From positions 1 through 64,000 of IMG/VR virus record IMGVR_UViG_3300045988_131228: 64,000 nucleotides of DNA, one strand, 5' to 3'. The first letter of the stretch is position 1; the number at the start of each line of letters is the position of its first letter. Under the pieces are notes generated by a model. It worked only from the letters and a program-made list of their open reading frames with translations. It was not told the origin of the DNA and ran no database searches. This DNA comes from a virus. Below are positions 1-38,244 of this stretch, in pieces. The position numbers were made by a program, and so were the translations under genes.

Positions 1-873
1 CTATTCTTTCATCTGCTTTTTATTTCTATATGATTCCATATACCATTCCAAAAAGTCACCATATAGATGTTTTTCCGCTTCTTTTCTGGCACTTGCAGCA
101 TCTTCTATAGTATCGTAAGTGCCAAGCCAATATGACTGCTTCTGGAATTTAATTGCTGCTCCCCATTTTCCGTTAGCCCTATGCACTCCATTGACTCCCG
201 ATGTATTATCTTTTCTCATCTTTTGACCATTTAAAACAATTGATGCTTTAGTATGTTTTTCCTTTTCTATATCATCAGCACATCCGCATGAGCGTTTCCA
301 CTCAAGATCAGATGCAGTACATGTTATCGTGTTACCACAATCACATTGACAAATACAAGACAGCCCATTTTCTTTCGTAATTCCCGTTACTTTCAGCATA
401 CCTATACGTTTTCCGATTAGATTATAAGATGTAGAGCATCCACAACTTATACTTTTACCATATATAAGATGGTATGGTGAAACTTCTTTGATTGTTCCGC
501 ACTTGCATTTACATACCCACATCTGTGTGTTATTCTTATATTCGCCTTTTTTCAAAACTGTCCAAAATCCAAATTGTTTTTCAGTGAGATCTTTTAACAC
601 AATTGCATCTTCATTGTAACAGTTTTTTCTTAATGTATCTTTTCTTTTTTCTTTGATACATTTATCGCACATTGTTGCGCTGCCACCCTTTAGTAGCTTT
701 ACAGAAACTTGTCTTGTACCACCACACAAATCACACAAACATTCCCATATAGCATATTTATTTTTAACTCCTACAATCCTCTGTGGAATTAAATGTCCAA
801 AGTGCTGCCCTTGTATGTTTTTGATACGACTACCATTAAAACGAATATATTCATCCATTTTTATTCCATCCAT
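1..873 (-). CDS. Zn-ribbon-repeat plus AP2-domain DNA-binding protein (homing-endonuclease-associated type; no nuclease motif seen)
   Basis: 290-aa ORF. Three CxC..CG...CGC-type repeats, then C-terminal AP2-like GVNGVHRANGKWGAAIKFQKQSYWLGTYDTIEDAASARKEAE. Confidence 0.6.
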   Translation of the reverse strand: MDGIKMDEYIRFNGSRIKNIQGQHFGHLIPQRIVGVKNKYAIWECLCDLCGGTRQVSVKLLKGGSATMCDKCIKEKRKDTLRKNCYNEDAIVLKDLTEKQFGFWTVLKKGEYKNNTQMWVCKCKCGTIKEVSPYHLIYGKSISCGCSTSYNLIGKRIGMLKVTGITKENGLSCICQCDCGNTITCTASDLEWKRSCGCADDIEKEKHTKASIVLNGQKMRKDNTSGVNGVHRANGKWGAAIKFQKQSYWLGTYDTIEDAASARKEAEKHLYGDFLEWYMESYRNKKQMKE

Positions 874-3155: not shown

Positions 3156-3393
3156 ATGTATTCACTGTTCCTTTCTACAAATTAATTGGATTTATAAATA
3201 TTACTTTATGATTCGTAATTTCCTTTTTGAACTTCATTTTTAATATAAAGTGGGATAATCCCAAATAACCAAAATGAAGTTTGCTTTATATATTGTTCAC
3301 CAACTTTTGTATAATAACCAGATTGCTTAACTTTTTTAATGTAAAATCTTTCTCTTTTAACTAACATATAACAATTTCCTTTCGATCAAAAAA

Positions 3394-15926: not shown

Positions 15927-16471
15927 AGTTTTATGTATCATTGATAGATGTTACCTTTCAAACTATTTCAGTCTAAACAAAATCTTAGGTCTTTGTTTTG
16001 CATCTTTCCCCGTTTTTTGATCAGATACGGACAACTGAACTTTTTGTTATTGTTACCCTGTTCACATGGGCTTTTGGTTAGACTTTTTATTTACTTGCTA
16101 TCTTGTCAGTATCGCAACCCTTGCAAGAAACTTTATAGCAGTTTATACTTTGTTGCTCTGTATTTTACAAGACTTCTCTTGTCTGGATTTAGTTTATGTA
16201 TTACCAGAATCAAAAATCTGTTTTTTTTGAAAAGAAATAGATAAAACTTTTTGTTGCAATTGCTTTTTAAGATTTTAAAAATCTTTTGAGATATCCGATT
16301 AAAGCTAACCAGATGTCGTTAGACTTGAGGTATCTACTTTTTCAAACTCGACGCGCCCTCACGGGATACTACACGGCTCATAGCTATTAACTAGAGATCT
16401 CACGAATTATTTCGCTTTACCTCACAAGCGGTAACGACTCCGCTTGTCACAATATGAAGTTTTATGTATCA
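15927..16471. repeat. 14-nt direct repeats AGTTTTATGTATCA bracketing an ORF-free, relatively GC-richer core
   Basis: Exact copies at 15927-15940 and 16458-16471. The core contains hairpin ACAAGCGG (16424-16431)/CCGCTTGT (16440-16447). Confidence 0.5.
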
Positions 16472-16505
16472 ACTTGTTTCCCTCTGTTGATGGTATTACT
16501 ATAAC

Positions 16506-16604
16506 ATAGGGCACCCTATTAGTCAATAGGTTACCCTATGATTTTTTATGTTTGTGAATTGTGTATAATTTACATATTTGTATAGGGTACCCTATTAGTA
16601 TAAT
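16506..16604 (+). promoter_or_regulatory. rightward early promoter region with three 14-bp palindromic operator-like sites
   Basis: ATAGGGCACCCTAT 16506-16519, ATAGGTTACCCTAT 16526-16539, perfect ATAGGGTACCCTAT 16582-16595. TATAAT boxes at 16564-16569 and 16599-16604. Confidence 0.5.
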
Positions 16605-16728
16605 ATATACAAATGACCATAGAAAAGTTGACAAGATAAAGCTATAATGTTAATATGTAATACTACTCTTACACCAAAAATGAAAAGAGAATTATTACAT
16701 ATAATAAATAAAGGAAGGTGTAAGAATT

Positions 16729-16917
16729 ATGGCATATAGCCCAAAATCACAAAAAGATTATAATGATAGATGTACAGTTGTAAAACTTAAATATACACCA
16801 GAAGAAACGGAAGAATGTGCAAGAATGAAACGGTATGCAAAAGATAATAACATACCAATGAGCGTATATATCAAGAAGCTAATACAGGATGATCTTGACA
16901 GAAAAGGTTATAAATAA
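16729..16917 (+). CDS. putative ribbon-helix-helix/Arc-like regulator
   Basis: 62 aa. C-terminal NIPMSVYIKKLIQDDLDRKG resembles an RHH helix. It is the first gene downstream of the operators. Confidence 0.4.
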   Translation: MAYSPKSQKDYNDRCTVVKLKYTPEETEECARMKRYAKDNNIPMSVYIKKLIQDDLDRKGYK

Positions 16918-16921
16918 ATAT

Positions 16922-17368
16922 ATGATAGACGATAAAATAACAAAAGAGCACATAGAACATTTAAGAGACATAAACTATTATGATGCTTTAAAGTTGTTTG
17001 ATAATGGAAATATACGTTATTTATATGATGATTTATTTATAGAGTATATACGCCACATAATAAAGAAATGCTTGTTTATAACTGATACTGATAACATGAC
17101 AGATATAATATATAAATGTTTTGTTGTATCTGGTAACGTGTCAAGATGTCTTAATATGCTTAGATATAATAATATACAGTATAATCAAAAGTTATCAAAT
17201 GGAAGATATAGAGTTAATAAGGAAGACGTATATAACGCTTTGAATAATGGTAGATGTGCAGATATTGAAATAGATTTTATAGCACATTTATTATGGTATG
17301 GAAGAAACTACAATGAATTAGATAGTTATATAGATACTATGTTGTCAAAGATAAAACAGTTGTATTAA
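16922..17368 (+). CDS. hypothetical early protein
   Basis: 148 aa from the ATG at 16922. The track ORF starts at 16889 in the same frame. Confidence 0.5.
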   Translation: MIDDKITKEHIEHLRDINYYDALKLFDNGNIRYLYDDLFIEYIRHIIKKCLFITDTDNMTDIIYKCFVVSGNVSRCLNMLRYNNIQYNQKLSNGRYRVNKEDVYNALNNGRCADIEIDFIAHLLWYGRNYNELDSYIDTMLSKIKQLY

Positions 17369-17760
17369 CCGCATATAATAGGAAGTAACCCTTTATCAAT
17401 CATTGTGATCTGCATAACCTGTTATCATGCGTAAAATGTACAGATAGCCTTGTAAGCGTGTAGAATGCGTTTTAAGCGGTTTTGATGCTTATATGATAAT
17501 TATATCGGATAGTGTGCCTAAAGTCGTTTATATAGCGTTTTACAAGGTTGTTTTTAAGATAGGATGTACAGAAAAGGCTACATCTGGACTGTTTAAAACG
17601 TGCAGCATGATGATATTTTTGTATCATTTTAATACATTTTTGAGTGTATTTTTACGTCAATTTGCGTCAAAATGTGCGTTATTTTATGCAAGAATATTGT
17701 ATATTTATACATTATTTGTAATGTGTTTTTATGCAAAAATTTGTATAGAATAGCGTTGCT

Positions 17761-18540
17761 TTTGTGTGTTGGAATGGGTGAAATATTGCGGTAAAGTGTG
17801 AGTATTTTTGTCTGATTTATGATTGAAACGTGATGTATTTTTATCTTGTTTAGAGTATAATTTTATCTGTTTTTATGTGGTTTTTATGTACTGTTTTAAG
17901 TTTTGATCGTGTGATATTTTAATCCCTGGACAGTGTTAGGATACTGTATTTACAATGGTTTTATAGGATGCAGATTGTATAATATGGTGTGGTTAGTGTG
18001 GTTATATTGTGCGTTGTATTATGTGGTATTATGTTAGAGTGAGTGTGTATTGTAGTATATTGTATGGTATGTTAGAGGTATTATAATAGTAGTATTATGT
18101 GATAGGATGTAGATATATAGTGTGATATAGATATATGTATATTGTAAGTTATATGTATGGTTATGTATGATATATAATGTATATTATATTGTATATTATT
18201 GTGGGTTTATGTATAGGTTATTTGATGTTATCGTGTGAGTGTATTGTGTTATGTTTATATAATTTTATATTGTGTTTGGGGATGTGATCTTGTCTTCTGT
18301 TGTGCGTCCAGATTGTTTTATTATGTCCAGATTTTTGTATTATTAAAGTGTGTTACAATTTTTGTGTTACATTTGTGTATTATTTTGTAGTGGTGTGCTA
18401 TCCCATTTTTACCGTTGTTTTTGATGTCAAAGTGGAGCGTATTATTCTGATTTGTTACATTTTTGTGGTGTAAGTGGTGATATAAGTTTGTGTTATGGTT
18501 TTGTGTTACAATCTTGTAATCAAATTTTTTGTTGGAAATT
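17761..18540. other. C-depleted (G/T/A) non-coding block
   Basis: About 40 C in 780 nt by manual count. Uninterrupted C-free run at 18013-18231 (219 nt). No credible ORF. Confidence 0.8.
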
Positions 18541-18580
18541 CAACATAACGAACAGAATTGACCGATAGTCATTTATTCAC

Positions 18581-18630
18581 GTTTTTTCTCTCATTTTCTC
18601 TTGTTTTCTCTTATTTTCTCACTTTTTCTT
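18581..18630. repeat. five tandem 10-bp phased repeats (nnnTTTTCTC)
   Basis: gttttttctc tcattttctc ttgttttctc ttattttctc actttttctt, in exact 10-bp register. Confidence 0.85.
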
Positions 18631-18959
18631 TTTTCGAGTATACTATAATAATATTTATAATTGTCTATACAATTAAAATCTCCCATCCGTGATCGGCAGT
18701 CAATCCACCCGATAAAATTTTAGTTTCATTACATTAATTTTATATCCTGCACCGCCCCGTGTTTTTACCCCTATCAAAAATGTCAAGAAATAACAAAACT
18801 TGACTTTTTACACTTCCCACAAAAGTGCAAAAGTTAGTTTTATTCAACAATAGCAAGGCTTTTCGGGAATTGCATATTACACTATTTTAATCCGATTTTA
18901 TGATTCTGTTTTATAATGTATACCAGTAGGACGGGGATAGTTTACATTTGTAATTTTAA

Positions 18960-19800
18960 TATGATATTGTCATATCCACTGATGAGTTCGACTCACACTA
19001 CTTGTCCAAAAATCAAAACTGGTAATCCATCACCCCACACTCACCACCAGTAGAAAAATTTCTCATCATCATACCACCTCATAAATTACACCAAATCTAC
19101 ACACAATTCACTAAAATATTTAAAATGAGTTCGAGACAGAGTTCGACCGCACCCTTACATATCAACATAAAATAAATTTTCTGACAATTCTAAATCACCA
19201 ATTTTTACCCAAAATTACCTGCTCCAAATCACAATATCCCTTGCAAAATCTAACAATTTACGAAGTCCTCTCGAAGTGATACCATTACATAACAAATTTA
19301 ATCTACACACAATTCCAAATAATTCACTCTATCTTAATCCTGCAATATCCCAAATTCCCTTGCCACATCTACCTAAAACGCAGCAATCATTTCCTATTAA
19401 AAGTACACATCACTCTCCCATATCAATCAAAATTATCACCAAAAACACCTATCTCGAAGTCCACAATCTCACATCATCAGGAAATACCGTTCTAAATTGT
19501 GTCAAATTTCCACACAATTCTAATCACAAAAATTCACTCAAAAATACATCATAAAAACTTGAAATGCCAAAATGACACTTCAAGATACAATCATTTCAAT
19601 TTCATATTAATCTCATATCATCTACAACTCTAAAATCAATTTTATTCTCACTATTCTAATGTACAACTTAAAGTAAACACTACAATTACTCTCGCCTTAA
19701 CAATTTAACATCTGTACATTATAATTTTCAAATTAAATCTACATCATATAATCTACAACAAATATAGCAGAATCTCAAACAGAGAATCTTAGATAGAAAG
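18960..19800. other. G-depleted (C/A/T) non-coding block with degenerate internal repeats
   Basis: G-free runs at 19054-19126, 19502-19560 and 19585-19660. ACACAATTC recurs at about 19101, 19307 and 19512. GAGTTCGA occurs three times (18984, 19127, 19139). Confidence 0.8.
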
Positions 19801-19994
19801 ATAAGAGGTGGGGAGTACTTTTACATCTATAGAAAACCACTACTCTCATATTCCACCTATCCCAAAATTTTCACCAGCAAATAGATCCTCTTTATCTTGA
19901 ATGGAGAATCTATAACCAGAAACATGCAAACCAAATATTTCAATCCGTAAAGAGAGAAATAAATATTATTAAAAATAAAAAGGAGATTTTGTAA

Positions 19995-20210
19995 ATGATT
20001 ACACAAGAAACTAAAACTTTTATTCAAGTTGAAACAGAATATTACTTTCATGAAAACGGATTATATATTGATCCAATGTTACTGGTATATCCATTAGTAA
20101 CAGAAAACTATTCTTATCATCACTATAAGCAAGAATTAGACAACCATATTAAACATCTTATACGATATTTAATTTTAATTGATATTTTAAGCCAAGTAAA
20201 ATACTACTAA
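19995..20210 (+). CDS. hypothetical protein
   Basis: 71-aa ORF. AAGGAGATTTTGTAA precedes the ATG. Confidence 0.5.
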   Translation: MITQETKTFIQVETEYYFHENGLYIDPMLLVYPLVTENYSYHHYKQELDNHIKHLIRYLILIDILSQVKYY

Positions 20211-20223
20211 GGAGATTACGCAA

Positions 20224-20823
20224 ATGACATACCCAGAAATTAACACATTAACATCACCATTATACTGTTTACCGATTAACAAACCAATCATCTCATATTC
20301 CACTTACATAAGAAATAAACATAAAGATTTAGATTGTAATTATTGGAGAGTACATACATCTGATGGATATATTGAATTTGATTCACAACATTTCTATGGA
20401 ATATTCAATCATCATAAAAGTAATAGCATTCTTTCATCGGCAATATTATCAAAAATCACAGATATAACAAATAAATATCTTTCCGATAAGAAAATCTATA
20501 TACCAGGAATAACACCAAAATCATATTATCATCTCTCAAGAGGTTATGGTAAATCAATCAGAGAATTGCGTTATTTCATGAAACTAATATCAGATTCAGA
20601 AAAGAGTCAATTTTCATATAATCCATATTCACCAGAATATACAGTACAAAATTATAAATCTGATATGGAGAATTTATATAAAAAGATGATATCTGAAAAG
20701 ATACTTAACTCATATGAAACACAAAATAACTCTACAAAACAGAGAAGTAATAACAAAGAAGAAATGAGCTGCTTAAAAATTATTGCCGATAAAAACAATA
20801 CAAATAAGAAATTTCACAAATAA
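20224..20823 (+). CDS. hypothetical protein
   Basis: 199-aa ORF. AAGGAGATTACGCAA precedes the ATG. Confidence 0.55.
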   Translation: MTYPEINTLTSPLYCLPINKPIISYSTYIRNKHKDLDCNYWRVHTSDGYIEFDSQHFYGIFNHHKSNSILSSAILSKITDITNKYLSDKKIYIPGITPKSYYHLSRGYGKSIRELRYFMKLISDSEKSQFSYNPYSPEYTVQNYKSDMENLYKKMISEKILNSYETQNNSTKQRSNNKEEMSCLKIIADKNNTNKKFHK

Positions 20824-20838
20824 AGGAGATCAACCATT

Positions 20839-21699
20839 ATGAGAAAATCAAAAGACGACAAAAACAACACAACTACTACTATTACACCATCAGCATCTGA
20901 TAAGACACCAATTGAGATTGCATTACAGATTGATAAAGACGGAATGACAACGGCAAGTAAGTTATATTCATTTCTTGAATTAGATATTACTCATTTTTCA
21001 AGATGGTGTCGTAAAAATATTGTAAATAATAAATTTGCTACTGAAAATGAAGATTATGTAATTTTAGCCATTAATGGCGATAATTCATCTAAAGGTAGAC
21101 CAAAAACAGATTATAAACTTACATCTGAATTTGCAAAGAAACTTTCAATGACAGGTAACACCGAAAAACATGAGCAAGCAAGAGATTATTTTATTGCTTG
21201 TGAGCAAGGATTTAAAATTGCTACTGTTAAACTACAAGCAAGAAATGATGATATTCAAGCTTTAGCACAAAATGTAAATAATCTTGTACAAAAGATTGAT
21301 AGTAAATTTGATTCATTAGAAACAAGAGTATCTACATTAGAAAACAACACTACTACTCTAAAATCATTACCAAAGAAACAGCGATTTACATACTGGTCAT
21401 CAAAAATGTTTCCTAAATATCAAGCATTAGCAGAATATTTTGAAATTCAACTGAAAGATCTCTATAAGAATCTATATAGAGAATTTCAGAATATGTATCC
21501 TGATATTGAGCTAAACCAGATTGTAGATGATTATTGCTATGAGAATAAATTAGAAACTTGTTACACCTTAGACGCAATAGAGCATGATAAAACCGTAAGA
21601 GTATTATTTGAACAGTTAGTAGATACTCTTTTGGAGAAATATGATTTAGTACTTCATAAAGAGAAACTTGTAATGTCAACAATTTTTGACACAAAATAA
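20839..21699 (+). CDS. AntA/AntB-type antirepressor-domain protein
   Basis: 286 aa. ASKLYSFLELDITHFSRWCRKNIVNNKFATENEDYV and GRPKTDYKLTSEFAKKLSMTGNTEKHEQARDYFIACEQ. Confidence 0.55.
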   Translation: MRKSKDDKNNTTTTITPSASDKTPIEIALQIDKDGMTTASKLYSFLELDITHFSRWCRKNIVNNKFATENEDYVILAINGDNSSKGRPKTDYKLTSEFAKKLSMTGNTEKHEQARDYFIACEQGFKIATVKLQARNDDIQALAQNVNNLVQKIDSKFDSLETRVSTLENNTTTLKSLPKKQRFTYWSSKMFPKYQALAEYFEIQLKDLYKNLYREFQNMYPDIELNQIVDDYCYENKLETCYTLDAIEHDKTVRVLFEQLVDTLLEKYDLVLHKEKLVMSTIFDTK

Positions 21700-22385: not shown

Positions 22386-23561
22386 GTGAGAATCATTAAT
22401 AAAAACACAAATAATTATAAAGTGTATATACATACTAACATATTAAATGATAAGAAATATATTGGTATAACAAAAACATCAGAAAGAGAAAGATGGAATA
22501 ACGGAAATGGTTATCATAAAAATCAAAAATTCTATGAAGATATTCAAAAATATGGTTGGGATGATGGATTCACTCATGAGATCATACAAGACAATTTATC
22601 ATATAGTGAAGCAAGGCGTTTGGAGAAGTATTATATATCAAAATATAATTCTGTTTCAAATGGATATAACAATGCAAATTTTAATTTAAGTGGATCTTTA
22701 CAATTTGATTTTGATAATTTCATTCCAATAGATAATCCTGATGGAGAAATAAATAATAACAAGGAATATTTTACAAGAGTACCAAATGAATTTATACAAA
22801 TTGACATTAGAAAGAAATATAATCTTCACAGAATATTTTATGTTGTATATATTCTTATTGATAAACATAGAAGTTACGAGGATAAATCATACATTGTAAT
22901 TTCAGAAATATTTGATTTATGTGGTTATAAACTTGGTAAAAACAAACCAAAGGTATTTTATGAAATTATAAAATGTTTACTATTCTTAAATGAAAGTAAC
23001 ATGATTAGAATTACATCTAATTTTGATATTTACGCTGTTGGATATACTGATTGTATTCAAATGGATATTATATATTCTAATTTTGACGCAACAGATAAAT
23101 TCTCAAAAATTACATCTTCACAACTTGACTTTATAATGATGAGTGAATCAAGTATTAATAAAGAGAATATATTAATGGCATTCCTTTATATCAATTCTTA
23201 TATTTTTATTCGTCCAAAGAATAAAAATAATGAAGAAATAATAAGTGATCCGAAATCTAAACCAGAAGCATTTTTTCGCAGCATGGAAAGTATGGCAAAA
23301 GAATTGGCAATTTCAAAAGATACATTAAATCAATGTATTCAATGTTTAACTTCTTCTAGTGAAAACCAAAAACCTCTTTTGATAAAAAGAGAAGTAGGTA
23401 GTATACAACCAGATCCTAAAAAGCCACCACAAAATGTTCCAAATATCTATGTACTTAATAAAGAAGGATATGAACAAGAAATTGAATGGGCTATTTTAAA
23501 GATGCTAGAAGTATATAATGTAGATTCATTTGGAGAATTAACAGGTAAGGATGTGAAATAA
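22386..23561 (+). CDS. GIY-YIG family (homing) endonuclease with a long C-terminal extension
   Basis: YKVYIHT..KKYIGIT..RW..YSEARRLEKYYISKYNS..NGYN matches the GIY / YIG / R / E / N motif order. 391 aa. Confidence 0.75.
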   Translation: MRIINKNTNNYKVYIHTNILNDKKYIGITKTSERERWNNGNGYHKNQKFYEDIQKYGWDDGFTHEIIQDNLSYSEARRLEKYYISKYNSVSNGYNNANFNLSGSLQFDFDNFIPIDNPDGEINNNKEYFTRVPNEFIQIDIRKKYNLHRIFYVVYILIDKHRSYEDKSYIVISEIFDLCGYKLGKNKPKVFYEIIKCLLFLNESNMIRITSNFDIYAVGYTDCIQMDIIYSNFDATDKFSKITSSQLDFIMMSESSINKENILMAFLYINSYIFIRPKNKNNEEIISDPKSKPEAFFRSMESMAKELAISKDTLNQCIQCLTSSSENQKPLLIKREVGSIQPDPKKPPQNVPNIYVLNKEGYEQEIEWAILKMLEVYNVDSFGELTGKDVK

Positions 23562-24432: not shown

Positions 24433-24876
24433 ATGATGAGAAAAATTGATTACAAATATTTCTCAAAAGCCAAGCAGATTGCACAAGTGTCTGATTTTCC
24501 AAAGGTACATATTGGATGTATCGCTGTTTATCAGAATCGCATTATCGGAATTGGTTGTAATACAAATAAAACCCACCCAACCCAGAAGTATTATAACCGA
24601 TATAGAATAGATGACAACGATTTTGATAATTCTGAATCACTTCTACCAAAACTCCACGCAGAAATTAATTGCATAAATCAACTGAAACATTTGAATATTA
24701 ATTTTTCAAAGGTGAAGTTATACATATACCGCACTAGGAAAGATATTGTGTGTGGAATGGCTAGACCTTGTGCAAGCTGTATGCAAGCAATAAAGGATTT
24801 AGGGATTAGAGAAATATATTATACAACAAATGATGGTTATTCATATGAAAAGTTAGAGAAAGGATGTGCTGTTTAA
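24433..24876 (+). CDS. dCMP/cytidine deaminase-family zinc enzyme
   Basis: HAEINCI zinc/catalytic motif plus PCASCMQAI. 147 aa. Confidence 0.85.
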   Translation: MMRKIDYKYFSKAKQIAQVSDFPKVHIGCIAVYQNRIIGIGCNTNKTHPTQKYYNRYRIDDNDFDNSESLLPKLHAEINCINQLKHLNINFSKVKLYIYRTRKDIVCGMARPCASCMQAIKDLGIREIYYTTNDGYSYEKLEKGCAV

Positions 24877-25100: not shown

Positions 25101-27971
25101 ATGATTGATTTAACAACAGGTGTATATATTCCAAGTGTGGATGCGAAAGACATTTATCTTTCTGCACATTATTATAATTATGAAAATCACGACTACGATT
25201 TAAAACTTAAAGATGGTAATTATAATTTAAGAAAATTTATTAATACTCTTGATTACAGCTTGGACTTAATTGAGTTATTGAATATTTATTATAAAAAATA
25301 TCGCAAGAATGATTTTCTGTTTACTGTAAAAAAACACAAATATACTACAAATGTTATTAATCTCACATTCAAATATTCTGTAAAAGAATGGAATCAAATG
25401 AATAAGAATACATTTGTAAAGTTTGGCTATAACTATAGAGATTTGACGTTTGATGATTGCATTGCAAAAAATAAGATAGGTGAAATTGTTGGTATTCAAA
25501 TAAATTCAAAAGTAAAAAATAAATTAGAAATACCATCTCCATTTGTCGTGGAAAAAGTTGAAATTAAAGATAAGAAAGATAAATCAGTTGTAAAAGAGGT
25601 TCAAATACAGTATCAGAAAAAAGGTGAGCCTAAGACTTTAAAAACAAATGCTCAATTACGAAGTGAATTATATAAAAATGGTTTTACTTGTAATGGAGTC
25701 AAATATTGCAGGATGAAACGGTCTACTGGATCAGCTAGAGTTGGAAAATGTCTCTTCATTAATGAGTCATTATTTAAGCCATTATTAAATTTCAGTTCTG
25801 GGGCAATCCGTTTAAATCCTGGTGACGAAATAGATCTTGCTGCATATGAGGGGTATATCGCTCTTCCCTCGAGTAGCATTATTGATACTCTACCAATTAA
25901 ACCAGAGAATATTTTATTAATTGATGATTATGATAGTGTATTCAATGAAGATGTAATTGAAACGCATGACGAAAACAATTGGCTAAAAACAACTGAAAAG
26001 AATTGTACTATTACCAATACGATATGGGATGGACAATCATTAATGGATATATCTTTGTTTGGTGATTATTCAGAATATGGAATGGTGCTTCTCAGAAACT
26101 TAATGTTTAAGTCATGTTGTTTTAATTGTAATATTCAACAATGGTTTAAGGATAATAATATTACAGATATTTCACAATTAAATGGGAAAACAAGAGCTAC
26201 CAAAATTGAAGATGTAAAATTAATCACTACACCAAATAGTATTAAATATTTGAAATTTAGTACATGGGATGAATGGCTTGATAATTTATATCCTAATTTT
26301 GGAGTTGTAAAACATGATAAGAAGACTCACTTTTTTGAAGGTAGACTTGTTCAAACTCATTACCAGCTTTTGAATACTTTACAAATGTCAAAAGATGAAG
26401 TAAATGATTTTTTATCAGAAGCTTTAGACTTTGCACAATTATTACGCAATAATCCAGAGGTTGTACGATATTACATTAAATATCCTGATATTGATGAGTT
26501 AGATCCATTATCACAGCCTATGAACAGTAAAAATGATGTTGTATATAATTTGATGAGTATTAATGATAACTTCACAAAGACTAAATATTATAAAGATTTT
26601 TTAATTGATTTACTCAGGTCATATTATAAGAATCTAAAAAATGGACATGTTTATGTAAATGGAAATTATTCTACTTTGCTAGGAAATCCCATTGAAATGT
26701 TACAACAATCAATTGGTAAATTTGATGGTAAAAGTCAAATTGGAATTGGTAATATACATAGTATACGATTTGATTACAACAAAACACTATTGGCAAGCCG
26801 TAGCCCTCATGTAACAATTGGTAATATTTGGCTTCCGTATAATACAGAAAACAAACTGATAGATTGTTATTTTAATCTTACACCTGAAATTATATGTCTT
26901 AATTCAATTGGAGAAAATGTTTTACAGAGGTTATCAGGAGCAGATTTTGACAGTGATACCGTATTATTAACAGATAATGAAATATTGATTCGTGCAGCAA
27001 AAAGGAATTATCATTTATTCAAGACTCCTACTTCTTTTGTATCAGCTCGAAAAGTTAAAAGATATTATACTCCTGAACAACAAGCAGATCTTGATATTAA
27101 AACATCTGTAAATAAAATTGGAGAAATTATCAATCTTTCTCAGGAGCTAAATTCTTTGTTATGGGATAGAATGTATTATGGAGAAACTTATGATGATATT
27201 AAAGAGCTATATTATGACATTTGTCAATTGGATGTAATGTCTGGTATCGAAATTGATAAAGCAAAAAAAGAATTTGATGTTAATAATGTTAAAGAACTTG
27301 ATAAATTAAGACAAAAATACGCACCCGTCCTTGAACACATCGAAAAAGACGAAAGTGGTAAAGATATAAAAAAGAAAAAAGTCCCACACTTCTTCTCTCA
27401 TATTTCAAAACAAAAAGGTTTCTATAATCCAGAAAAAAAATACTATTGTAAATATCATACGACTATGGATTATTTACAGACAATAGTAAATGGATTCAGA
27501 ATAAAAAATCCATATAAAAAAGATTGGTCACCATTTACAGCATTATTGGATAATGAAAAATACTACAGCTATAATGTAAATCAAAATCAGATTGATAAAA
27601 TTTACACTATGCTCAAAAAATATGTTAATGATAGAAAGTTAATATATTCATCCGATTCGGACTCAAAAGAAGATAAGAATGAAAGATCCAATAAATTAAA
27701 AGTTGATTTAATTTCGGATATTGAATCTGAGACTATAGGATACTCTACAATGTATAGATTATTATCTTCTGTTGAAGATAAAGAAAATGCACAGATCAAA
27801 AATTTATTATTAGAGATATTATTTTTATGTGGAAATAAAAGTTTTAACGAGACAATAATTCAATCTTCTAATGAAATAAAACAGTTAGAAATTGACGGAA
27901 ACGACATAAAAATCTTTGATATTGGTTTTAAAATTGCAAAAAAGCGGATAAATTCATGCAAAAATGAGTGA
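25101..27971 (+). CDS. large protein with a DxDxD motif; candidate YonO-like single-subunit two-barrel RNA polymerase
   Basis: 956 aa. LSGADFDSDTVLL resembles the NADFDGD metal-binding loop of beta-prime/YonO/RdRP double-psi barrels. No Walker A motif. Confidence 0.4.
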   Translation: MIDLTTGVYIPSVDAKDIYLSAHYYNYENHDYDLKLKDGNYNLRKFINTLDYSLDLIELLNIYYKKYRKNDFLFTVKKHKYTTNVINLTFKYSVKEWNQMNKNTFVKFGYNYRDLTFDDCIAKNKIGEIVGIQINSKVKNKLEIPSPFVVEKVEIKDKKDKSVVKEVQIQYQKKGEPKTLKTNAQLRSELYKNGFTCNGVKYCRMKRSTGSARVGKCLFINESLFKPLLNFSSGAIRLNPGDEIDLAAYEGYIALPSSSIIDTLPIKPENILLIDDYDSVFNEDVIETHDENNWLKTTEKNCTITNTIWDGQSLMDISLFGDYSEYGMVLLRNLMFKSCCFNCNIQQWFKDNNITDISQLNGKTRATKIEDVKLITTPNSIKYLKFSTWDEWLDNLYPNFGVVKHDKKTHFFEGRLVQTHYQLLNTLQMSKDEVNDFLSEALDFAQLLRNNPEVVRYYIKYPDIDELDPLSQPMNSKNDVVYNLMSINDNFTKTKYYKDFLIDLLRSYYKNLKNGHVYVNGNYSTLLGNPIEMLQQSIGKFDGKSQIGIGNIHSIRFDYNKTLLASRSPHVTIGNIWLPYNTENKLIDCYFNLTPEIICLNSIGENVLQRLSGADFDSDTVLLTDNEILIRAAKRNYHLFKTPTSFVSARKVKRYYTPEQQADLDIKTSVNKIGEIINLSQELNSLLWDRMYYGETYDDIKELYYDICQLDVMSGIEIDKAKKEFDVNNVKELDKLRQKYAPVLEHIEKDESGKDIKKKKVPHFFSHISKQKGFYNPEKKYYCKYHTTMDYLQTIVNGFRIKNPYKKDWSPFTALLDNEKYYSYNVNQNQIDKIYTMLKKYVNDRKLIYSSDSDSKEDKNERSNKLKVDLISDIESETIGYSTMYRLLSSVEDKENAQIKNLLLEILFLCGNKSFNETIIQSSNEIKQLEIDGNDIKIFDIGFKIAKKRINSCKNE

Positions 27972-28494: not shown

Positions 28495-28567
28495 TGCGGA
28501 TTAGAGAAGTAGTTAACTCGCTTGGCTCATAACCAAGAGAACATTGGTGCAAATCCAATATCCGCTA
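28495..28567 (+). tRNA. tRNA-Met (anticodon CAT) with initiator-like features
   Basis: Hand-folded cloverleaf. Anticodon stem CTTGG/CCAAG, loop CTCATAA, T arm ATTGG-TGCAAAT-CCAAT, U8, A14, A21, 1:72 U-U mismatch, A11:U24, A73. Confidence 0.7.
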
Positions 28568-28599
28568 TTTGATGCGTTTTATGACGCATCATAAATTTT

Positions 28600-29478
28600 A
28601 CAATGTTATTGTTACGATTATGTGGCTTGACACAGATAGTATATCGTGAGGTATATAAAGATAGATTTACACCCTATCGCTATAGAAATATAGTCAATTC
28701 AAGCAAAACTGACATACCAGTAACTCAAAAGGTTGCGTTTCGCAATTGAGTCTATGCGGAAATAGTATGTATTATAAGGAGCGATAAAGTGATTTAGGGG
28801 CGACCGCTGAGAATTACTTTTTGACCGCAAATCAGATAGCTCATGCAAACTTATATGCATATAATGGTGAATCAGGAGGATAAATAGTGCGAGAAATTAT
28901 TAATCGAGTGCATTATCCATTTATATGAGTATATTACTTATATGAACGTTTAGTAGGGATTATAACTGAAAGACATGAAGGTGTGATGTATTTTTGTTCT
29001 CAAAAGGAATGAAAGCGTCTGGTGTAGCACATCTTCTGTAACTTGGACTTAAACTTGTTGTAAAGTAGAATAATATTATCGGGAATGGTGGAATGCCGTT
29101 TACGTTTAAAAGGTAAAAGAATATTTATATACTTAAATATTACATACAAAGCGAAAGTCTACACCTCTACATGGTGAAAACAACCTAATTCCATAGTACT
29201 TATAAGAGTATAATATGGACATTAATAAGTCTCGCAAGACTTTGAGATGTTTGATCGAGTTTGCACAGTTCTCTTAGCGGAGATTTATAGCACGGCGGTG
29301 TTAATGGAATAATAAAATCAGAGTAGTCATGTAGTAAAAGAGAAATGCCACTCTTTCAAAAAGGCGGTTGTGGAAGTTTACTATATATGCGTAAGGTATA
29401 TAGTGGATACGGAAAGAACTCATAATGTTCTAAAAGAACTTCTGTATAAATGTGTAATCTCAGCATTTATAATAATAA
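28600..29478 (+). ncRNA. candidate large structured non-coding RNA between tRNA genes (ROOL/GOLLD-class hypothesis)
   Basis: About 0.9 kb with no ORF of 60 aa or more on either strand. TTGACA at 28627. Many local hairpins, e.g. 28922-28944, 29228-29241, 29381-29403, 29412-29430. Confidence 0.3.
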
Positions 29479-29556
29479 TGATATATAGCTCAATTGGTTA
29501 GAGCGATTGTTTTCGTATGGATTTGGTAGATTTAGGTTCAAAGCCTAATATATCAA
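29479..29556 (+). tRNA. tRNA-like element or pseudo-tRNA with a degenerate anticodon stem
   Basis: Perfect 7-bp acceptor TGATATA/TATATCA, canonical D arm GCTC-AATTGGTTA-GAGC and T arm TTAGG-TTCAAAG-CCTAA. Only 3 of 5 anticodon-stem pairs form and the variable region is 9 nt. Confidence 0.45.
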
Positions 29557-29647
29557 TTAAGCCAGGAATAATCAAACTCTCTTAAATATACTGGCGATAG
29601 GGGACGTTGTGAGATGTCCCCTAAATGAGTTAGAAAGTTGGTAAATT

Positions 29648-29815
29648 ATGTATATAGAAAAAGATGGAATACCTTATATACATGATAATGAAAATAAAAT
29701 CAAAGATAAAATTTTAACAATTCTCTCACATGAAGAATTCACTTTAGCTACAACAAAACATCTTTTTGATAGAATTATTCAAGAAATTAATGAGAATAAT
29801 AAAATTAATTTATAA
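29648..29815 (+). CDS. small hypothetical protein (55 aa)
   Basis: Below the track cutoff. ATG at 29648, TAA at 29813-29815. Preceded by hairpin GGGGAC..GTCCCC (29599-29621). Confidence 0.4.
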   Translation: MYIEKDGIPYIHDNENKIKDKILTILSHEEFTLATTKHLFDRIIQEINENNKINL

Positions 29816-29860
29816 ATTTTCAGATTGTTCTTTTCTTCTTTGATCATTAAGTTCAGAAAT

Positions 29861-30007
29861 TTAGTTGAATGCTTCTGTATATGTTTCCATATACTTTTTA
29901 ACGAATGTTTTTACTTGAAGTGGTTGAGAACCAACAGAAGCACTTCTTTTAGCTACATAATCAGCTAATTCTTTAATTTGATTAAGATCTAAAGTTGTAT
30001 CTCTCAT
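29861..30007 (-). CDS. small hydrophilic protein (48 aa), a lone leftward gene in the tRNA island
   Basis: GGAGGTATACAA-ATG with its own promoter. MRDTTLDLNQIKELADYVAKRSASVGSQPLQVKTFVKKYMETYTEAFN. Confidence 0.45.
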   Translation of the reverse strand: MRDTTLDLNQIKELADYVAKRSASVGSQPLQVKTFVKKYMETYTEAFN

Positions 30008-30036
30008 TTGTATACCTCCGATGTATTTTTCTTACA

Positions 30037-30065
30037 ATTATACAACTTATGATGCGATTATTCAA
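30037..30065 (-). promoter_or_regulatory. sigma70-type promoter for the 48-aa leftward ORF
   Basis: Minus strand TTGAAT (30060-30065), 17 nt, TATAAT (30037-30042). Confidence 0.5.
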
Positions 30066-30198
30066 TATTTGATTATAAAAATCCAACAATGAGTGTCGAT
30101 TATTACGTTATTCGACTAATAAAATGCGTGTTAATAGTATGTTTGATATATCATAAAAATACATCACCGCTACTACTCATGGCGGTTGGATAAAATCA

Positions 30199-30287
30199 GT
30201 ACAGGTGGCAGAGTCGGGTTTAATGCGGATGCCTTGAAAGCATTTGATGGATAAAACCATCCGTGGGTTCAAATCCTACCCTGTACG
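30199..30287 (+). tRNA. tRNA-Ser (anticodon TGA), class II with a long variable arm
   Basis: Acceptor GTACAGG/CCTGTAC, anticodon stem GATGC/GCATT, loop CTTGAAA, variable arm GATGG-ATAAAA-CCATC, T arm GTGGG-TTCAAAT-CCTAC, G73. Confidence 0.85.
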
Positions 30288-30708: not shown

Positions 30709-31986
30709 TTGGTAAACAATCGTAAATATAAAGAATTTAAACCAAAGGACATTGATTTTGTATTTATCACTCACAATCATGGGGATCACTGCTTGTTATT
30801 ACCGAAATTATATAAAGAAGGATGTAGAGCTGCCACTATTGTTTCAGAAGGATCAAAGCAAGTTTTGAAAGATATGGCAATTGATTCTGCTTTAATTAGT
30901 GAAAGAGACATATTGGTTATCAATTCTCAGAATAATAAGAATTATTCTCCACTTTATTCTATAGAAGATGTAAATAAAATGTTGGAATACACATTGGAAA
31001 AACCAGTAAATGAAAAAATTATTATTGATGATGAATTAGCTTTTGAGTTAATTCCAAGTGGTCATCTTCTTGGAAGTTGTCAAGTGAAATTATATTTTAC
31101 TGTTGATGGATTGACAAAAACCTGTTTAGTCACAGGAGATTTAGGAAATAAGATAATTCATAATAGATTTGTTGGTGAATATCAACAAGTAGATTATGCT
31201 GATGTTGTTATTGGAGAATCAACATACGGAGATAGACCAGATTTAAAAACTGGACTTAAAGAACGAAAAAATGATTTAGAAAAATTTAAAGCAATTATAG
31301 AAACACAAGTTCATGAAATGAAAGGACGGGTTGTTATCCCAAGTTTTGCGCAATCAAGACTTCAACAACTTGTGCTGATGATTTATGAAATGTATAAAGA
31401 TTCTCAATGGAAACCAAAAGTATATATAGATTCACCATTGTCTATTAAAATTTTTGATGATTATGACGAATGCTTGACTGGTGAAGATAAAAAACTTTTT
31501 GATGAAATGATTCAAGATAAGATGTTTACTTTTGTAAAAGAATCCGAAGACAGTAAATCACTTGTACAAAGTAATGAACCTTGTGTAATTTTATCGACCA
31601 GTGGAATGTGCATGGTCGGCAGGATCAGGCATCATTTAAAAAAATGTATTCCAAATCCTAATGCTACGATGCTCTTTGTGGGATTCAGTACAGATGGAAG
31701 CCTTGCTTCACTTTTAAAGGATAATAAACAAAAATTTGTTACCATTGACCAAAAAGAATATCCTTGTAGATGTGCTTCTTATTCATTAAAATCAATGAGT
31801 GGACACGCACCATTCTGGCAACTGATAGATGACTATACAAAAATTAATAGTCAAAAGATTGTCTTACATCATGGTTCCAAACAAGCAAAAGAAACTTTAA
31901 AAATTGCTCTGGAAAAAGAATTGGAGAAACAATGTAAGTCAACAAGAGTTGTAATTGCTAACTCAAGTTTGAAATTTACATTATAA
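30709..31986 (+). CDS. metallo-beta-lactamase-fold beta-CASP nuclease (RNase J/CPSF-like); the true N-terminus lies upstream of this TTG
   Basis: FVFITHNHGDHCLLLP carries the HxHxDH motif. The same frame is open from 30547 and encodes KISFVDSPSSEDVTGSLIYISTQNHRILVDCGLHQ. Confidence 0.75.
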   Translation: MVNNRKYKEFKPKDIDFVFITHNHGDHCLLLPKLYKEGCRAATIVSEGSKQVLKDMAIDSALISERDILVINSQNNKNYSPLYSIEDVNKMLEYTLEKPVNEKIIIDDELAFELIPSGHLLGSCQVKLYFTVDGLTKTCLVTGDLGNKIIHNRFVGEYQQVDYADVVIGESTYGDRPDLKTGLKERKNDLEKFKAIIETQVHEMKGRVVIPSFAQSRLQQLVLMIYEMYKDSQWKPKVYIDSPLSIKIFDDYDECLTGEDKKLFDEMIQDKMFTFVKESEDSKSLVQSNEPCVILSTSGMCMVGRIRHHLKKCIPNPNATMLFVGFSTDGSLASLLKDNKQKFVTIDQKEYPCRCASYSLKSMSGHAPFWQLIDDYTKINSQKIVLHHGSKQAKETLKIALEKELEKQCKSTRVVIANSSLKFTL

Positions 31987-32904: not shown

Positions 32905-34071
32905 GTGGATGATATAAATAAAGTTGAGTTTTTAGAGCAACAGCTAGATTTATTAAAACGTAAACAGAAAGATTCAAACATTGAATGGCAAGATATCGCT
33001 GATTTCAGATCAGATTACAATGGGGAATCTGAACATAGAGATACTATCCGTAAAGGAAGTAAACTTTTGTATGAATACTTAGATGCAGGATGGGTACATG
33101 AACCAACATCAATGAGTATTTCTGAATCCGATGAAATTATTAGATTAAAGAAAGAACGTCAGAAATTGTCTGACGCAAGAGTTGAATATAATCGTCAAAT
33201 TAGACAGGAAGCTCGTAAGGAGTCTTATTCTGAAATGGTTAAAAGAATTATTTGTGAGAATGTAGAGCCAACTGATTTAAAAGTACAATATCATACTTTT
33301 AATAGTAATACTGATTTACTGGTACACCTCACTGATATTCACACAGGGATTGAGATTAATACTTGGAATAATACATTTAATCAAGATATTCTAAAAGAAC
33401 GAATTGAAAAATTCACTTCTGAAATTCTTAAAATTAGAGATTTACATAAATCTGAAAATTGTTATCTAGTCATCGGTGAAATCCTGTCAGGTATTATCCA
33501 TAACAATCTTCGATTACAAAATAACATGGATTTAATGGAACAATTCAAATATGTTTCAGAATTAATTTCTGCAATGCTAATTAGAATTGCAAATCATTTT
33601 AATAATATTTATGTATATGTTACACCTGGTAATCATTCAAGAATTTCACCTAAAAAAGAAGATGCTTTAGATGGTGAAAATATGGATGTATTATTACCAT
33701 TTTATTTGAAAGCAAGATTACAAAATATTAAAAATATTGATATTTGTGAAAATAATATTGATTCTGAGATTGCAATGTTTAATATTCGAGGAAATAATAT
33801 TTTTGCATCACACGGTCATAAAGATGCACCCGCAAGTGTTGTTCAAAATTTTACAATGATGTTTGGAATTAAACCAGACATTGTGCTATTAGGACATAGA
33901 CATTTGAATGGATTAACTACCGTATATAATGCAAAGGTTATTGAGTCAGGATGTTGCTCAGGAACAGACCAATATGCAATGTCTATTAGAAAAACTAATC
34001 GTCCTGAACAGACCATATCTGTTGTGGGACAGGATGGTTTAGTTTGTTTATATGATATTCAATTGGATTAA
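32905..34071 (+). CDS. calcineurin-like metallophosphoesterase (SbcD/Mre11-like fold)
   Basis: HLTDIHTG, PGNHSRI, SHGHKD, LLGHRH in the canonical order. 388 aa. Confidence 0.65.
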   Translation: MDDINKVEFLEQQLDLLKRKQKDSNIEWQDIADFRSDYNGESEHRDTIRKGSKLLYEYLDAGWVHEPTSMSISESDEIIRLKKERQKLSDARVEYNRQIRQEARKESYSEMVKRIICENVEPTDLKVQYHTFNSNTDLLVHLTDIHTGIEINTWNNTFNQDILKERIEKFTSEILKIRDLHKSENCYLVIGEILSGIIHNNLRLQNNMDLMEQFKYVSELISAMLIRIANHFNNIYVYVTPGNHSRISPKKEDALDGENMDVLLPFYLKARLQNIKNIDICENNIDSEIAMFNIRGNNIFASHGHKDAPASVVQNFTMMFGIKPDIVLLGHRHLNGLTTVYNAKVIESGCCSGTDQYAMSIRKTNRPEQTISVVGQDGLVCLYDIQLD

Positions 34072-38213: not shown

Positions 38214-38244
38214 GTAAAAATATCAAAAATTGGAGGTGTTATAT

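Follow-up and report, generated by a model that had tools for sequence, protein, structure and literature searches.

Mirror-image, strand-specific base exclusion around a putative origin and genome-end core in an SPbeta-like gut phage

What could keep two neighbouring blocks of non-coding phage DNA almost free of one base each, C on one side and G on the other? The question is raised by a 64,000-nt window of viral DNA (positions 1–64,000 of IMG/VR record IMGVR_UViG_3300045988_131228), in which an earlier sequence-only reading had described such blocks within a tract (17369–19994) that lacks credible open reading frames (ORFs); the largest there are the two frames that it had already listed (86 and 92 aa). 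Our recount gave 39 C in the 780 nt of 17761–18540 on the plus strand (5.0%; T 48%, G 23.5%, A 23%), in agreement with the roughly 40 C, or about 5%, reported before. The uninterrupted C-free run at 18013–18231 is indeed 219 nt long; the runner-up in the 64 kb measures 66 nt, and at 15% C the chance of such a run is about 0.85^219 (~1e−16) per start position. The reciprocal block, 18960–19800, contains 54 G in 841 nt (6.4%; A 40%, C 25%, T 29%), and the three G-free runs reported for it proved exact as well (19054–19126, 73 nt; 19502–19560, 59 nt; 19585–19660, 76 nt). Four of the five longest G-free runs of the window lie in this block. Change-point analysis placed the edges of the two arms, as we call the blocks hereafter, at about 17606, 18561, 18990 and 19757, slightly wider than the earlier coordinates, with a core of ordinary composition between them (Table 1).

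Coding strands of the same genome normally carry 8–10% of their minor base, so that the low fraction taken alone lies only about twofold under the coding norm. The exceptional traits are the keto/amino nature of the skew (G+T versus A+C, not purine versus pyrimidine), its reversal of sign, the 5–6% level and the very long base-free runs. In 500-nt bins, GC skew reached +0.69 and −0.63 in the tract, compared with −0.49 to +0.30 in the other bins, and in the complete 176-kb genome MT835469 the tract is the sole spot at which a window with skew of at least +0.55 adjoins one of −0.55 or below; comparable blocks elsewhere in the genome were thus found neither in the window bins nor in the MT835469 scan. 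The polarity is such that G lies on the strand running 5′ to 3′ toward the core and C on the strand running 5′ to 3′ away from it. It had been argued from the letters that coding bias offers no explanation and that the skew has the reverse of the sign that a simple bidirectional origin would give. Both arguments held: the tract is non-coding phage DNA, and the sign is also reversed relative to the two flanking gene arms. The C-free stretch 18013–18231 is 76% A+T, TG/TA-rich and of low complexity, with purine/pyrimidine alternation of 0.74 (0.50 ± 0.03 in shuffles). An ancient inverted duplication was rejected as the source of the symmetry, the alignment of the left arm with the reverse complement of the right arm scoring 29 (shuffles: mean 23.2 ± 3.3, maximum 31). 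The mirroring is one of composition only, with no sequence shared between the arms beyond chance.

Conservation was evaluated in an alignment of 21 distinct tracts from relatives. All of these comprise a C-poor arm of 0.9–1.1 kb, a core of ~0.4 kb and a G-poor arm of 0.8–1.5 kb. Across the relatives, the left arm (17606–18561) holds 5.3–7.4% C, 20–24% G and 43–47% T, the right arm holds 4.9–6.9% G, 25–29% C and 38–40% A, and C across 18016–18265 stays at 0.5–3% in every one. Arm composition remains this constant while the tract sequences differ by 10–44%. Divergence amounted to 0.11–0.25 in the left arm and 0.06–0.16 in the right arm, close to that at fourfold sites of neighbouring genes (0.00–0.24, mostly 0.06–0.24), indicating that the arms evolve at a roughly neutral rate. 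In relatives whose flanking protein is only 56–59% identical, the right arm still aligns at 70–72% nucleotide identity. Judged from these alignments, composition and polarity are conserved, while most of the sequence drifts. A composition held within about 1–2 points during turnover at about the fourfold rate fits selection better than a single mutational lesion. Decayed genes were rejected as the origin of the tract: frames running from stop to stop over 60 codons or more occupy different positions and reading frames in the 21 relatives, none of which carries an intact gene there, and the two longest frames of the tract show amino-acid identity below nucleotide identity. The idea that residual G and C mark conserved islands proved true for a few motifs and false on average, the residual excluded bases being on average no more conserved than other bases.

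To place the element, the phage itself has to be identified. Its terminase (44098–45720) shares 40.6% identity, across 98% of its length, with the YonF-type enzyme of the Bacillus SPbeta group, and a portal gene follows. A 956-aa ORF (25101–27971, plus strand) aligns with SPbeta YonO over ~590 aa at 22% identity (E = 3e−6), the DxDxD-type metal-binding motif included, and matches PHROG 8308, a family of unknown function, at E = 3e−92; no sequence match was obtained in PDB. This ORF probably encodes a single-chain RNA polymerase of YonO type, carried here by a gut phage, and from the YonF-type terminase and YonO-like polymerase we class the phage as SPbeta-like. A crAss-like identity, considered on the grounds of low GC and the large non-coding tract, was ruled out because terminase, portal and YonO-like protein all match SPbeta-like Firmicute phages. 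The sole close GenBank relative is MT835469, an unannotated phage from human faeces, with coding DNA 94.5% and the tract 81% identical. The tract is present in more than 30 IMG/VR contigs and 13 metagenome contigs, one tract-carrying contig sitting in a metagenome-assembled genome labelled Lachnoclostridium. It occupies the junction of two divergently transcribed gene arms, the left side of which includes a small plus-strand module (15948–17368) aimed into the tract; the nearest leftward gene lies ~2 kb beyond the left arm.

The corresponding junction of Bacillus phages carries a smaller version of the element. In SPR, SPbeta, BUCT082 and BUCT083, the divergent junction upstream of the yonP/yonO homologues shows the same order and polarity, with a C-poor stretch of ~230–300 nt, an ordinary core of 251 bp and a G-poor stretch of 350–700 nt; the left arm of SPbeta is weak (8–13% C). 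The linear BUCT082 record (loci L040/L041) ends on the last base of the C-poor stretch and starts with the core, and the BUCT083 record (L038/L039), which has the opposite orientation, starts where the core meets the G-poor stretch. Placed on one coordinate system, the two starts are separated by exactly 251 bp (SPR, L036, 9332–9582; SPbeta, L062, 3020–3270). The final 120 nt of BUCT082 contain 3 C and its initial 120 nt contain 18, and across the BUCT083 start the G count per 120 nt drops from 18 to 6; the composition switches coincide to the nucleotide with two independent record ends. Published restriction and read mapping places the genome opening point and packaging start of SPbeta between yonR and yonP, and in the same interval the mapped reads form a raised-coverage block of ~250 bp that is precise and equal in all isolates. 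We infer, independently of the mapping authors, that the core of the Bacillus phages constitutes a short terminal repeat or at least has physical ends as its bounds, which would make the arms subterminal. The two record starts and the ~250-bp block also suggest that SPbeta has a short direct terminal repeat instead of, or besides, headful packaging. Short terminal repeats are published for phages with related terminases (Sundance, 323 bp; phiCD211, 378 bp).

The gut-phage and Bacillus regions agree in lying at a divergent junction upstream of a small gene and a YonO-type gene, 10–25 kb upstream of the YonF-type terminase, with C-poor arm, core and G-poor arm in the same polarity. They differ in the shorter arms and 251-bp core of the Bacillus phages and in the G-poor arm, which is C+T-rich on the plus strand in Bacillus phages and A+C-rich in the gut phages. 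An alignment of the gut-phage core with the Bacillus core was not significant. The sole nucleotide similarity between the cores, or between the two regions at large, is a GGGG-N-TA-NN-TTTACAT word (18933–18947 in the window; ~3215–3235 in SPbeta L062), located ~40–45 nt before the G-poor arm in both phage groups. Going by synteny and layout, the region would be an SPbeta-type intercluster packaging/end region with a new, composition-defined component, and we predict by this analogy that the gut-phage core is the counterpart of the Bacillus 251-bp terminal-repeat/packaging-start element. In SPR and SPbeta, a one-mismatch DnaA box lies at the arm/core edge, and no gene points into either arm. 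A near-consensus promoter, read from the sequence, directly precedes yonP in SPbeta, downstream of the G-poor arm. In SPbeta, according to published work, the promoter region of yonP is a target of the master repressor MrpR, which makes the junction a regulated switch.

Repeats of origin type adjoin the core on its left. Taking at least three clustered direct repeats or DnaA boxes as the mark of iterons, we found three to four copies of (T)TGTGTTACA in the cassette of the window. The word TGTTACA recurs at 18351, 18365, 18453 and 18504, exact TTGTGTTACA occurs within the window only in the cassette, and a short inverted repeat, TGTTG-N6-CAACA, lies at 18530. No part of the tract is less conserved than the cassette (mean pairwise identity 0.55–0.64), whose place is held among close relatives by four unrelated repeat families (e.g. 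in L001, L002 and others); the alternatives include TATGAA/TATGTA arrays, GTGTGGTTAT repeats and four copies of TATGTGGATAAC. In relatives L022 (6600–6660) and L023 (296–377), the fourfold TATGTGGATAAC yields three perfect DnaA boxes, TGTGGATAA being present in three perfect copies and one near-perfect copy. From these repeats, the cassette appears to behave like a specificity module for an origin, a packaging site or an operator; when flanking genes were compared over 8 kb to each side, none had variants that track cassette type, and no initiator gene could be linked to the cassette. The C-free, 76% A+T stretch is ~100 nt away from the cassette repeats. Within the core, segment 18766–18865 is 85–92% conserved, and the GGGGATAGTTTACAT/promoter-like element (promoter part 18941–18970), which is kept in at least 95% of relatives, ends the highly conserved right half. 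The TTTTCTC array is found in type-A and some type-C relatives, is degenerate in type-D relatives and is lacking in type-B relatives.

Two further analyses addressed the arms as single strands and their substitutions. RNA folding in 200-nt windows showed that the minus strand of the left arm supplies the seven least foldable minus-strand windows of the 64 kb and the plus strand of the right arm the three least foldable plus-strand windows. The energies of these outward RNAs were −2.3 to −10.5 kcal/mol against a mean of −30.4 (minus strand) and −5 to −7 against −31.7 (plus strand). With DNA parameters, both strands of the arms were among the least foldable windows, accounting for 8 of the 11 weakest in the 64 kb. 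Substitution rates were estimated by parsimony in trios of close relatives and are used with caution, as the method is biased under skewed composition. Per base, C>T equalled G>A in both arms (296 vs 324 in the left, 273 vs 299 in the right), leaving ongoing cytosine deamination unsupported; with composition constant across lineages, this weakened the earlier proposal of fossil strand-specific deamination. In the left arm, the per-base A>G rate exceeded T>C ~2.6-fold (235 vs 90), and 4 A>C events stood against 34 T>G; the right arm gave the mirror pattern, with the equivalent ratio at ~2-fold. The asymmetry lies in the creation of new G:C pairs, transversions included. Since creation of the excluded base is depressed in transitions and transversions alike, selection again fits better than a single mutational lesion. 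Consensus and tree-parsimony counts, which had given a net gain of the excluded base, were discounted as a skew artefact, composition being constant across lineages.

We tentatively read the arms as strand-polar DNA flanks of an origin/genome-end core that work when single-stranded, a reading that we regard as possible, at clearly less than an even chance. The SPbeta-like synteny, the genome-end/packaging core of the Bacillus relatives and the iteron/DnaA-box cassette at the inner end of the left block, on which it draws, had escaped the sequence-only reading. The genome of the gut phage would end in the core, the arms would turn single-stranded, and selection would act on that state. The core (18562–18990) and cassette (18341–18561) hold origin-like iterons and, by homology of layout with the Bacillus phages, may also hold the packaging start and a short terminal repeat. 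The duplex beside the core could open through 5′→3′ resection, incomplete lagging-strand synthesis at virion ends, or outward helicase unwinding from the origin. The exposed strands would carry G or C, never both, and G–C hairpins could not form in them. Where the genome ends, a 3′ tail rich in G+T and free of C would lie 5′ of the terminal repeat and could serve as a loading platform for a recombinase, an annealing protein or a single-stranded DNA-binding protein, with a filament growing 5′→3′ onto the repeat. The outcome would be the joining of genomes into concatemers and recombination-dependent replication. Candidate end-processing nucleases are encoded at 32905–34071 (annotated as an exonuclease) and 30709–31986 (beta-CASP). 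A terminal repeat would itself be a 3′ tail on both strands and hence could not be skewed, so that asymmetry should start where unique DNA starts, as is seen in the Bacillus phages. The strongest sigma-A-like flanking promoters lie beyond the arms and plus-strand genes run into the left arm, which argues that the arms are not simply leaders of divergent operons. Tentative as it is, this reading would explain at once why the arms lie where they do and mirror each other, why the core between them is unskewed and their inner edges are sharp, why gene orientation makes no difference and why composition alone is conserved. A bolder form, which we consider doubtful, is that SPbeta-like phages, from those of Bacillus to those of human-gut Firmicutes, carry a hitherto unrecognised cis-acting genome-end element with telomere-like subterminal arms set by strand-specific base exclusion and not by sequence, whose 3′ overhangs would be selected to be C-free, hairpin-free and recombinogenic, would be immune to cytosine deaminase and uracil excision, and would drive concatemer formation and recombination-dependent replication from the adjacent iteron/DnaA-box origin.

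Several points weigh against reading the arms as single-stranded flanks of genome ends. Hairpin avoidance explains the depletion of one base, not the maintenance of its partner at 22–29% against AT-biased mutation, and the selective effect per site would be small. A few ordinary windows fold as weakly as the arms when treated as single-stranded DNA, and the case for selection draws on trio parsimony, with its bias under skewed composition. The window yielded no identifiable gene for a recombinase or an annealing protein. The BUCT082 and BUCT083 record starts may be assembly breakpoints rather than mapped ends, and the authors of the SPbeta mapping explain their results by headful packaging that starts at a pac site and not by a terminal repeat. 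Ends of gut-phage contigs (3 viral loci and 13 metagenome loci) were scattered, with no pile-up at the arm edges. Mirror arms were looked for and not found in phiCD211, Sundance, phiL47 and Enterococcus H1, all of SPbeta-like lineages that have short terminal repeats or this type of terminase, so that they are no general requirement of this packaging type.

Known systems resemble the element in part. T7-type terminal repeats, if present here, would likewise be a few hundred base pairs long, at both ends and once at the genome junction, and 3′ single-stranded ends are intermediates of T7-type concatemer formation; T7, however, has same-orientation heptamer arrays beside its repeat and not mirror-image base exclusion. 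With iteron/DnaA-box origins such as P1 oriR the region shares clustered direct repeats of 9–12 bp, which vary from relative to relative, and, in one lineage, perfect DnaA boxes; the neighbouring A+T-rich stretch, which should open easily, is a candidate unwinding element, but known unwinding elements measure 50–100 bp rather than 1 kb and the skew sign here is opposite to that of bidirectional replication. If the ends lie in the core, a G+T-rich, C-free strand would run 5′→3′ to each end as in eukaryotic telomeres; unlike telomeres, the arms lack a short tandem unit (Tandem Repeats Finder detected few local 9–20-bp repeats in 2–6 copies) and show no sign of synthesis on a template, their G is unclustered, and they would be subterminal, inside the repeat. 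Packaging, origin and end regions of phages are normally defined by sequence motifs, whereas here composition and polarity are kept while the sequence drifts. Such composition-only conservation in phages of distant hosts (Bacillus subtilis and gut Firmicutes) points to a constraint on a single strand, DNA or RNA, not described for phage genome ends; the papers searched contain no account of mirror-image base exclusion at the ends of phage genomes, and nothing relevant on a Rho link in SPbeta. Concrete predictions follow for the replication origin, packaging site and end structure of SPbeta-like phages, of which SPbeta and phi3T are genetically tractable and carry a small version of the element, and the signature offers a simple compositional means of locating genome ends or origins in uncultured phage contigs.

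The two options left from the sequence-only reading, transcripts lacking one base and protein-binding arrays, are not favoured. Outward transcripts from promoters in the core would be G-poor and C-rich, and the arms might act as Rho-loading (rut-like) tracts, that is, as bidirectional Rho-dependent insulators or attenuators that shield the flanking operons from core or origin transcription until anti-termination or strong induction. We judge this unlikely, despite a good deal that agrees with it. The outward RNAs are the least foldable of the 64 kb and nearly without AUG, GUG or UUG and Shine–Dalgarno sequences, and such transcripts would cover both G depletion and C enrichment, whereas hairpin avoidance covers depletion only. 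The right arm of the Bacillus phages, C+T-rich and G-poor, is rut-like and misfits a keto-skew mutational signature; the conserved promoter-like TTTACA-18-TATTGT at the start of the right arm is aimed into it, the junction is MrpR-regulated in SPbeta, and TC dinucleotides are enriched on the plus strand of the right arm (observed/expected 1.41). Yet no outward promoter is established, the best sigma-A-like ones lying at the outer arm ends (19697–19725 here; before yonP in SPbeta), and the genes at 15948–17368 enter the left arm, with the nearest leftward gene ~2 kb beyond it. Outward transcripts also give no reason for the switch at two Bacillus record ends, and enrichment of pyrimidine–C dinucleotides is missing from the left arm. 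Firmicutes, moreover, usually rely on intrinsic terminators and make limited use of Rho. Like the rut sites of lambda tR1, the outward RNA is C-rich (22–29%), G-poor (5–7%), unstructured, untranslatable and well over 80 nt; known rut sites span ~80–100 nt, however, as against arms of 0.8–1.5 kb, and the main promoters here lie beyond the arms. Read in the inward direction, transcripts would be G/U-rich and C-poor and might prime an R-loop origin across the core or free a terminal 3′ strand, which seems to us very doubtful. Transcription converging on the core, from the plus-strand genes on the left and a leftward promoter in the arm on the right, would displace the G-rich non-template strand and leave the RNA hybridised to the C-rich template. 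Positive GC skew downstream of a promoter is a known signature of R-loop-prone DNA, the plus-strand genes at 15948–17368 aim into the left arm, a leftward promoter-like site (19731–19702) and a hairpin (19584–19558) lie in the right arm, and iterons/DnaA boxes adjoin the left arm. The inward skew is strong, but the G clusters of R-loop regions are missing: G is isolated, with GG at 0.63 and 0.78 of expectation and few G runs. The RNA would moreover be U-rich, and rU:dA hybrids are weak; no SPR or SPbeta gene points into the arms, and the leftward unit of the right arm would stop after ~140 nt at the hairpin.

As a neutral by-product, the arms could record strand-asymmetric damage or misincorporation on the strand ending 3′ at the core (through resection, a terminal Okazaki gap or gap filling) that has led to a skewed equilibrium, which we hold to be improbable. 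Either 5′→3′ resection or a gap left by the lagging strand at the terminus would give the polarity seen, a core exposed on both strands would be expected to lack skew, and both gut-phage arms gain T and G and lose C and A on the 3′-ending strand. Turnover near the fourfold rate, a tight compositional equilibrium, G depletion spilling into the first two genes, residual excluded bases that are not extra conserved and the excess of A>G over T>C on the G+T-rich strand of the left arm, with its equivalent in the right arm, would all follow. Against this, cytosine deamination, the main lesion of single-stranded DNA, is symmetric, and the asymmetric transversions (A>C versus T>G) are not predicted by deamination. 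On the plus strand the Bacillus G-poor arm is rich in T and not in A, the reverse of what a G>A origin would leave; in SPR, the fourfold sites of adjacent genes are without a skew gradient; other terminal-repeat phages of the superfamily are without arms; and the trio rates predict, by our own estimate, ~9–10% of the excluded base versus the 5–6% observed. Mitochondrial heavy/light asymmetry and mutation clusters at resected breaks share with the arms the keto/amino skew, a level of ~5% of one base and a sign switch at a break or origin, and the right-arm composition (A 40, C 25, T 29, G 6%) resembles that of vertebrate light-strand fourfold sites, but their C>T excess is missing in the arms, where transversions are asymmetric too. 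Least probable in our estimate is that the arms are duplex arrays, pacL/pacR-like or operator-like, bound by the small terminase subunit, a repressor or an HU-like protein, with base exclusion as a side effect of the recurring binding words. The T tracts of the left arm at 11.1 bp suggest curved or wrapped DNA, the right arm holds ~205-bp units, a 16-mer in three copies and a 9-mer whose four copies are found only there, and the cassette repeats vary by lineage as specificity determinants do. However, duplex sites need no absence of one base from one strand over 219 nt, most of the arm sequence drifts at a neutral rate with composition alone kept, and cassette type is tracked by none of the genes within 8 kb. 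SPP1 pac (pacL–pacC–pacR) consists of two binding arms around a cut site, one of them intrinsically bent, as the 11.1-bp phasing would suggest here; the present arms share no sequence with each other and hence no common binding word, are several-fold longer (0.8–1.5 kb) than known pac arms and ~10 times longer than those of SPP1, and base exclusion is not a feature of SPP1. A published comparison found the SPbeta region without similarity to SPP1 pac.

Table 1 Coordinates of the tract and its features in the 64,000-nt window
Feature	Position	Strand	Description
Last gene before the tract	16889..17368	+	159 aa; points into left arm; codon-position skew typical of coding DNA
Left arm	17606..18340		Non-coding; ~6% C, G+T-rich on plus strand; start by change-point analysis
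C-free centre of left arm	18013..18231		Zero C in 219 nt
Swappable repeat cassette, type A here	18341..18561		(T)TGTGTTACA at 18348, 18362, 18501; TTTGTTACA at 18451
Core, ordinary composition	18562..18990		Change points 18561 and 18990; ~430 bp
TTTTCTC(N3) array, 10-bp period, 4.6 copies	18584..18629	+	Tandem Repeats Finder; 18584/18594/18604/18614
Conserved GGGGATAGTTTACAT, then promoter-like TTTACA-18-TATTGT with TG extension	18933..18970	+	Promoter scan; points into right arm
G-containing 9-mer GASTTCGAS	18984..19461		18984, 19127, 19139 (+), 19453 (−)
Right arm	18991..19757		Non-coding, A+C-rich on plus strand; 5.3% G, 26% C; change-point edges
AATCTACACACAATTC in three copies, spaced 206 and 205 nt	19094..19520	+	Marks weak ~205-bp tandem units
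Terminator-like hairpin and T run	19558..19584	−	Sole terminator-like match in 16500–20500; conserved; predicted
Best sigma-A-like promoter of the tract, TTAACA-17-TATAAT, 11/12 positions	19697..19725	+	Outer end of right arm, 270 nt before first gene
First gene of the rightward array	19995..20210	+	G-depleted, likewise next gene

The repeats of the arms differ in kind. AA/TT dinucleotides of the left arm, measured over 17585–18340, show a periodicity of 11.1 bp with a power of 4.5 (99% null 2.24), and the plus-strand T tracts in 17585–18000 are phased at the same interval, e.g. the TTTTTATGTGG repeats at 17861–17898, which predicts curved DNA. In the right arm, the ~205-bp units have ~52% column identity. 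The recurring words reported earlier were found at the positions named; they comprise ACACAATTC at 19101, 19307 and 19512, GAGTTCGA at 18984, 19127 and 19139, CAATATCCC at 19232 and 19343, and CCCTTGC at 19238 and 19357. All four GASTTCGAS matches of the 64 kb fall in the right arm (0.44 expected by chance), and these copies are conserved in relatives. The leftward promoter-like site and the hairpin of the right arm could also define a ~140-nt small RNA antisense to the arm; apart from the terminator hairpin, the fold of this candidate was no better than that of shuffles. An Rfam scan of 16000–21000 gave no match up to E = 1, and a tRNA search found none in the tract, the only tRNAs of the window lying at 28495–30287.

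Beside the tract, the last gene on its left is 93–100% identical in 9 relatives, where present, and its product has no match in PHROG, Pfam or NCBIfam. On the right, G depletion extends from the arm into the first two genes at all three codon positions; the GC skew at third codon positions is −0.38 and −0.22 in these genes and mostly 0 to +0.35 in later plus-strand genes. Stop-codon recoding was rejected for the small ORFs of the left gene arm and for the ORF-free tract, as reading through TAG or TGA does not merge ORFs convincingly. The gut phage Phass-1 (OQ749652, locus L044), which has the same terminase type, is filed under a 'code 15 clade'.

Other genes of the window deserve brief mention. 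Just upstream of the YonO-like gene, 24433–24876 (plus strand) encodes a protein of the cytidine/deoxycytidylate-deaminase fold (PF00383) that also scores above the MafB19-like deaminase threshold and is 91–98% identical in relatives carrying the gene; a nucleic-acid deaminase, were it one, would bear on the question of strand composition. Upstream of the terminase are a beta-CASP metallo-beta-lactamase nuclease (30709–31986, plus strand), whose scores against the Cas14 and aCPSF1 models stay far below the curated cut-offs, and a metallophosphoesterase (32905–34071, plus strand) that carries the exonuclease annotation. The late gene array contains a tyrosine-recombinase-like protein and an adjacent protein with a GmrSD N-terminal domain (36910–37977 and 38230–39222, both plus strand); a tyrosine-recombinase fold is also that of the SPbeta repressor MrpR. 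GIY-YIG and HNH homing-endonuclease-like genes are located at 22386–23561 (plus), 1–873 (minus) and 41698–42870 (plus), and the patchy occurrence of the GIY-YIG gene and its neighbours among relatives marks the region to the right of the tract as a mosaic.

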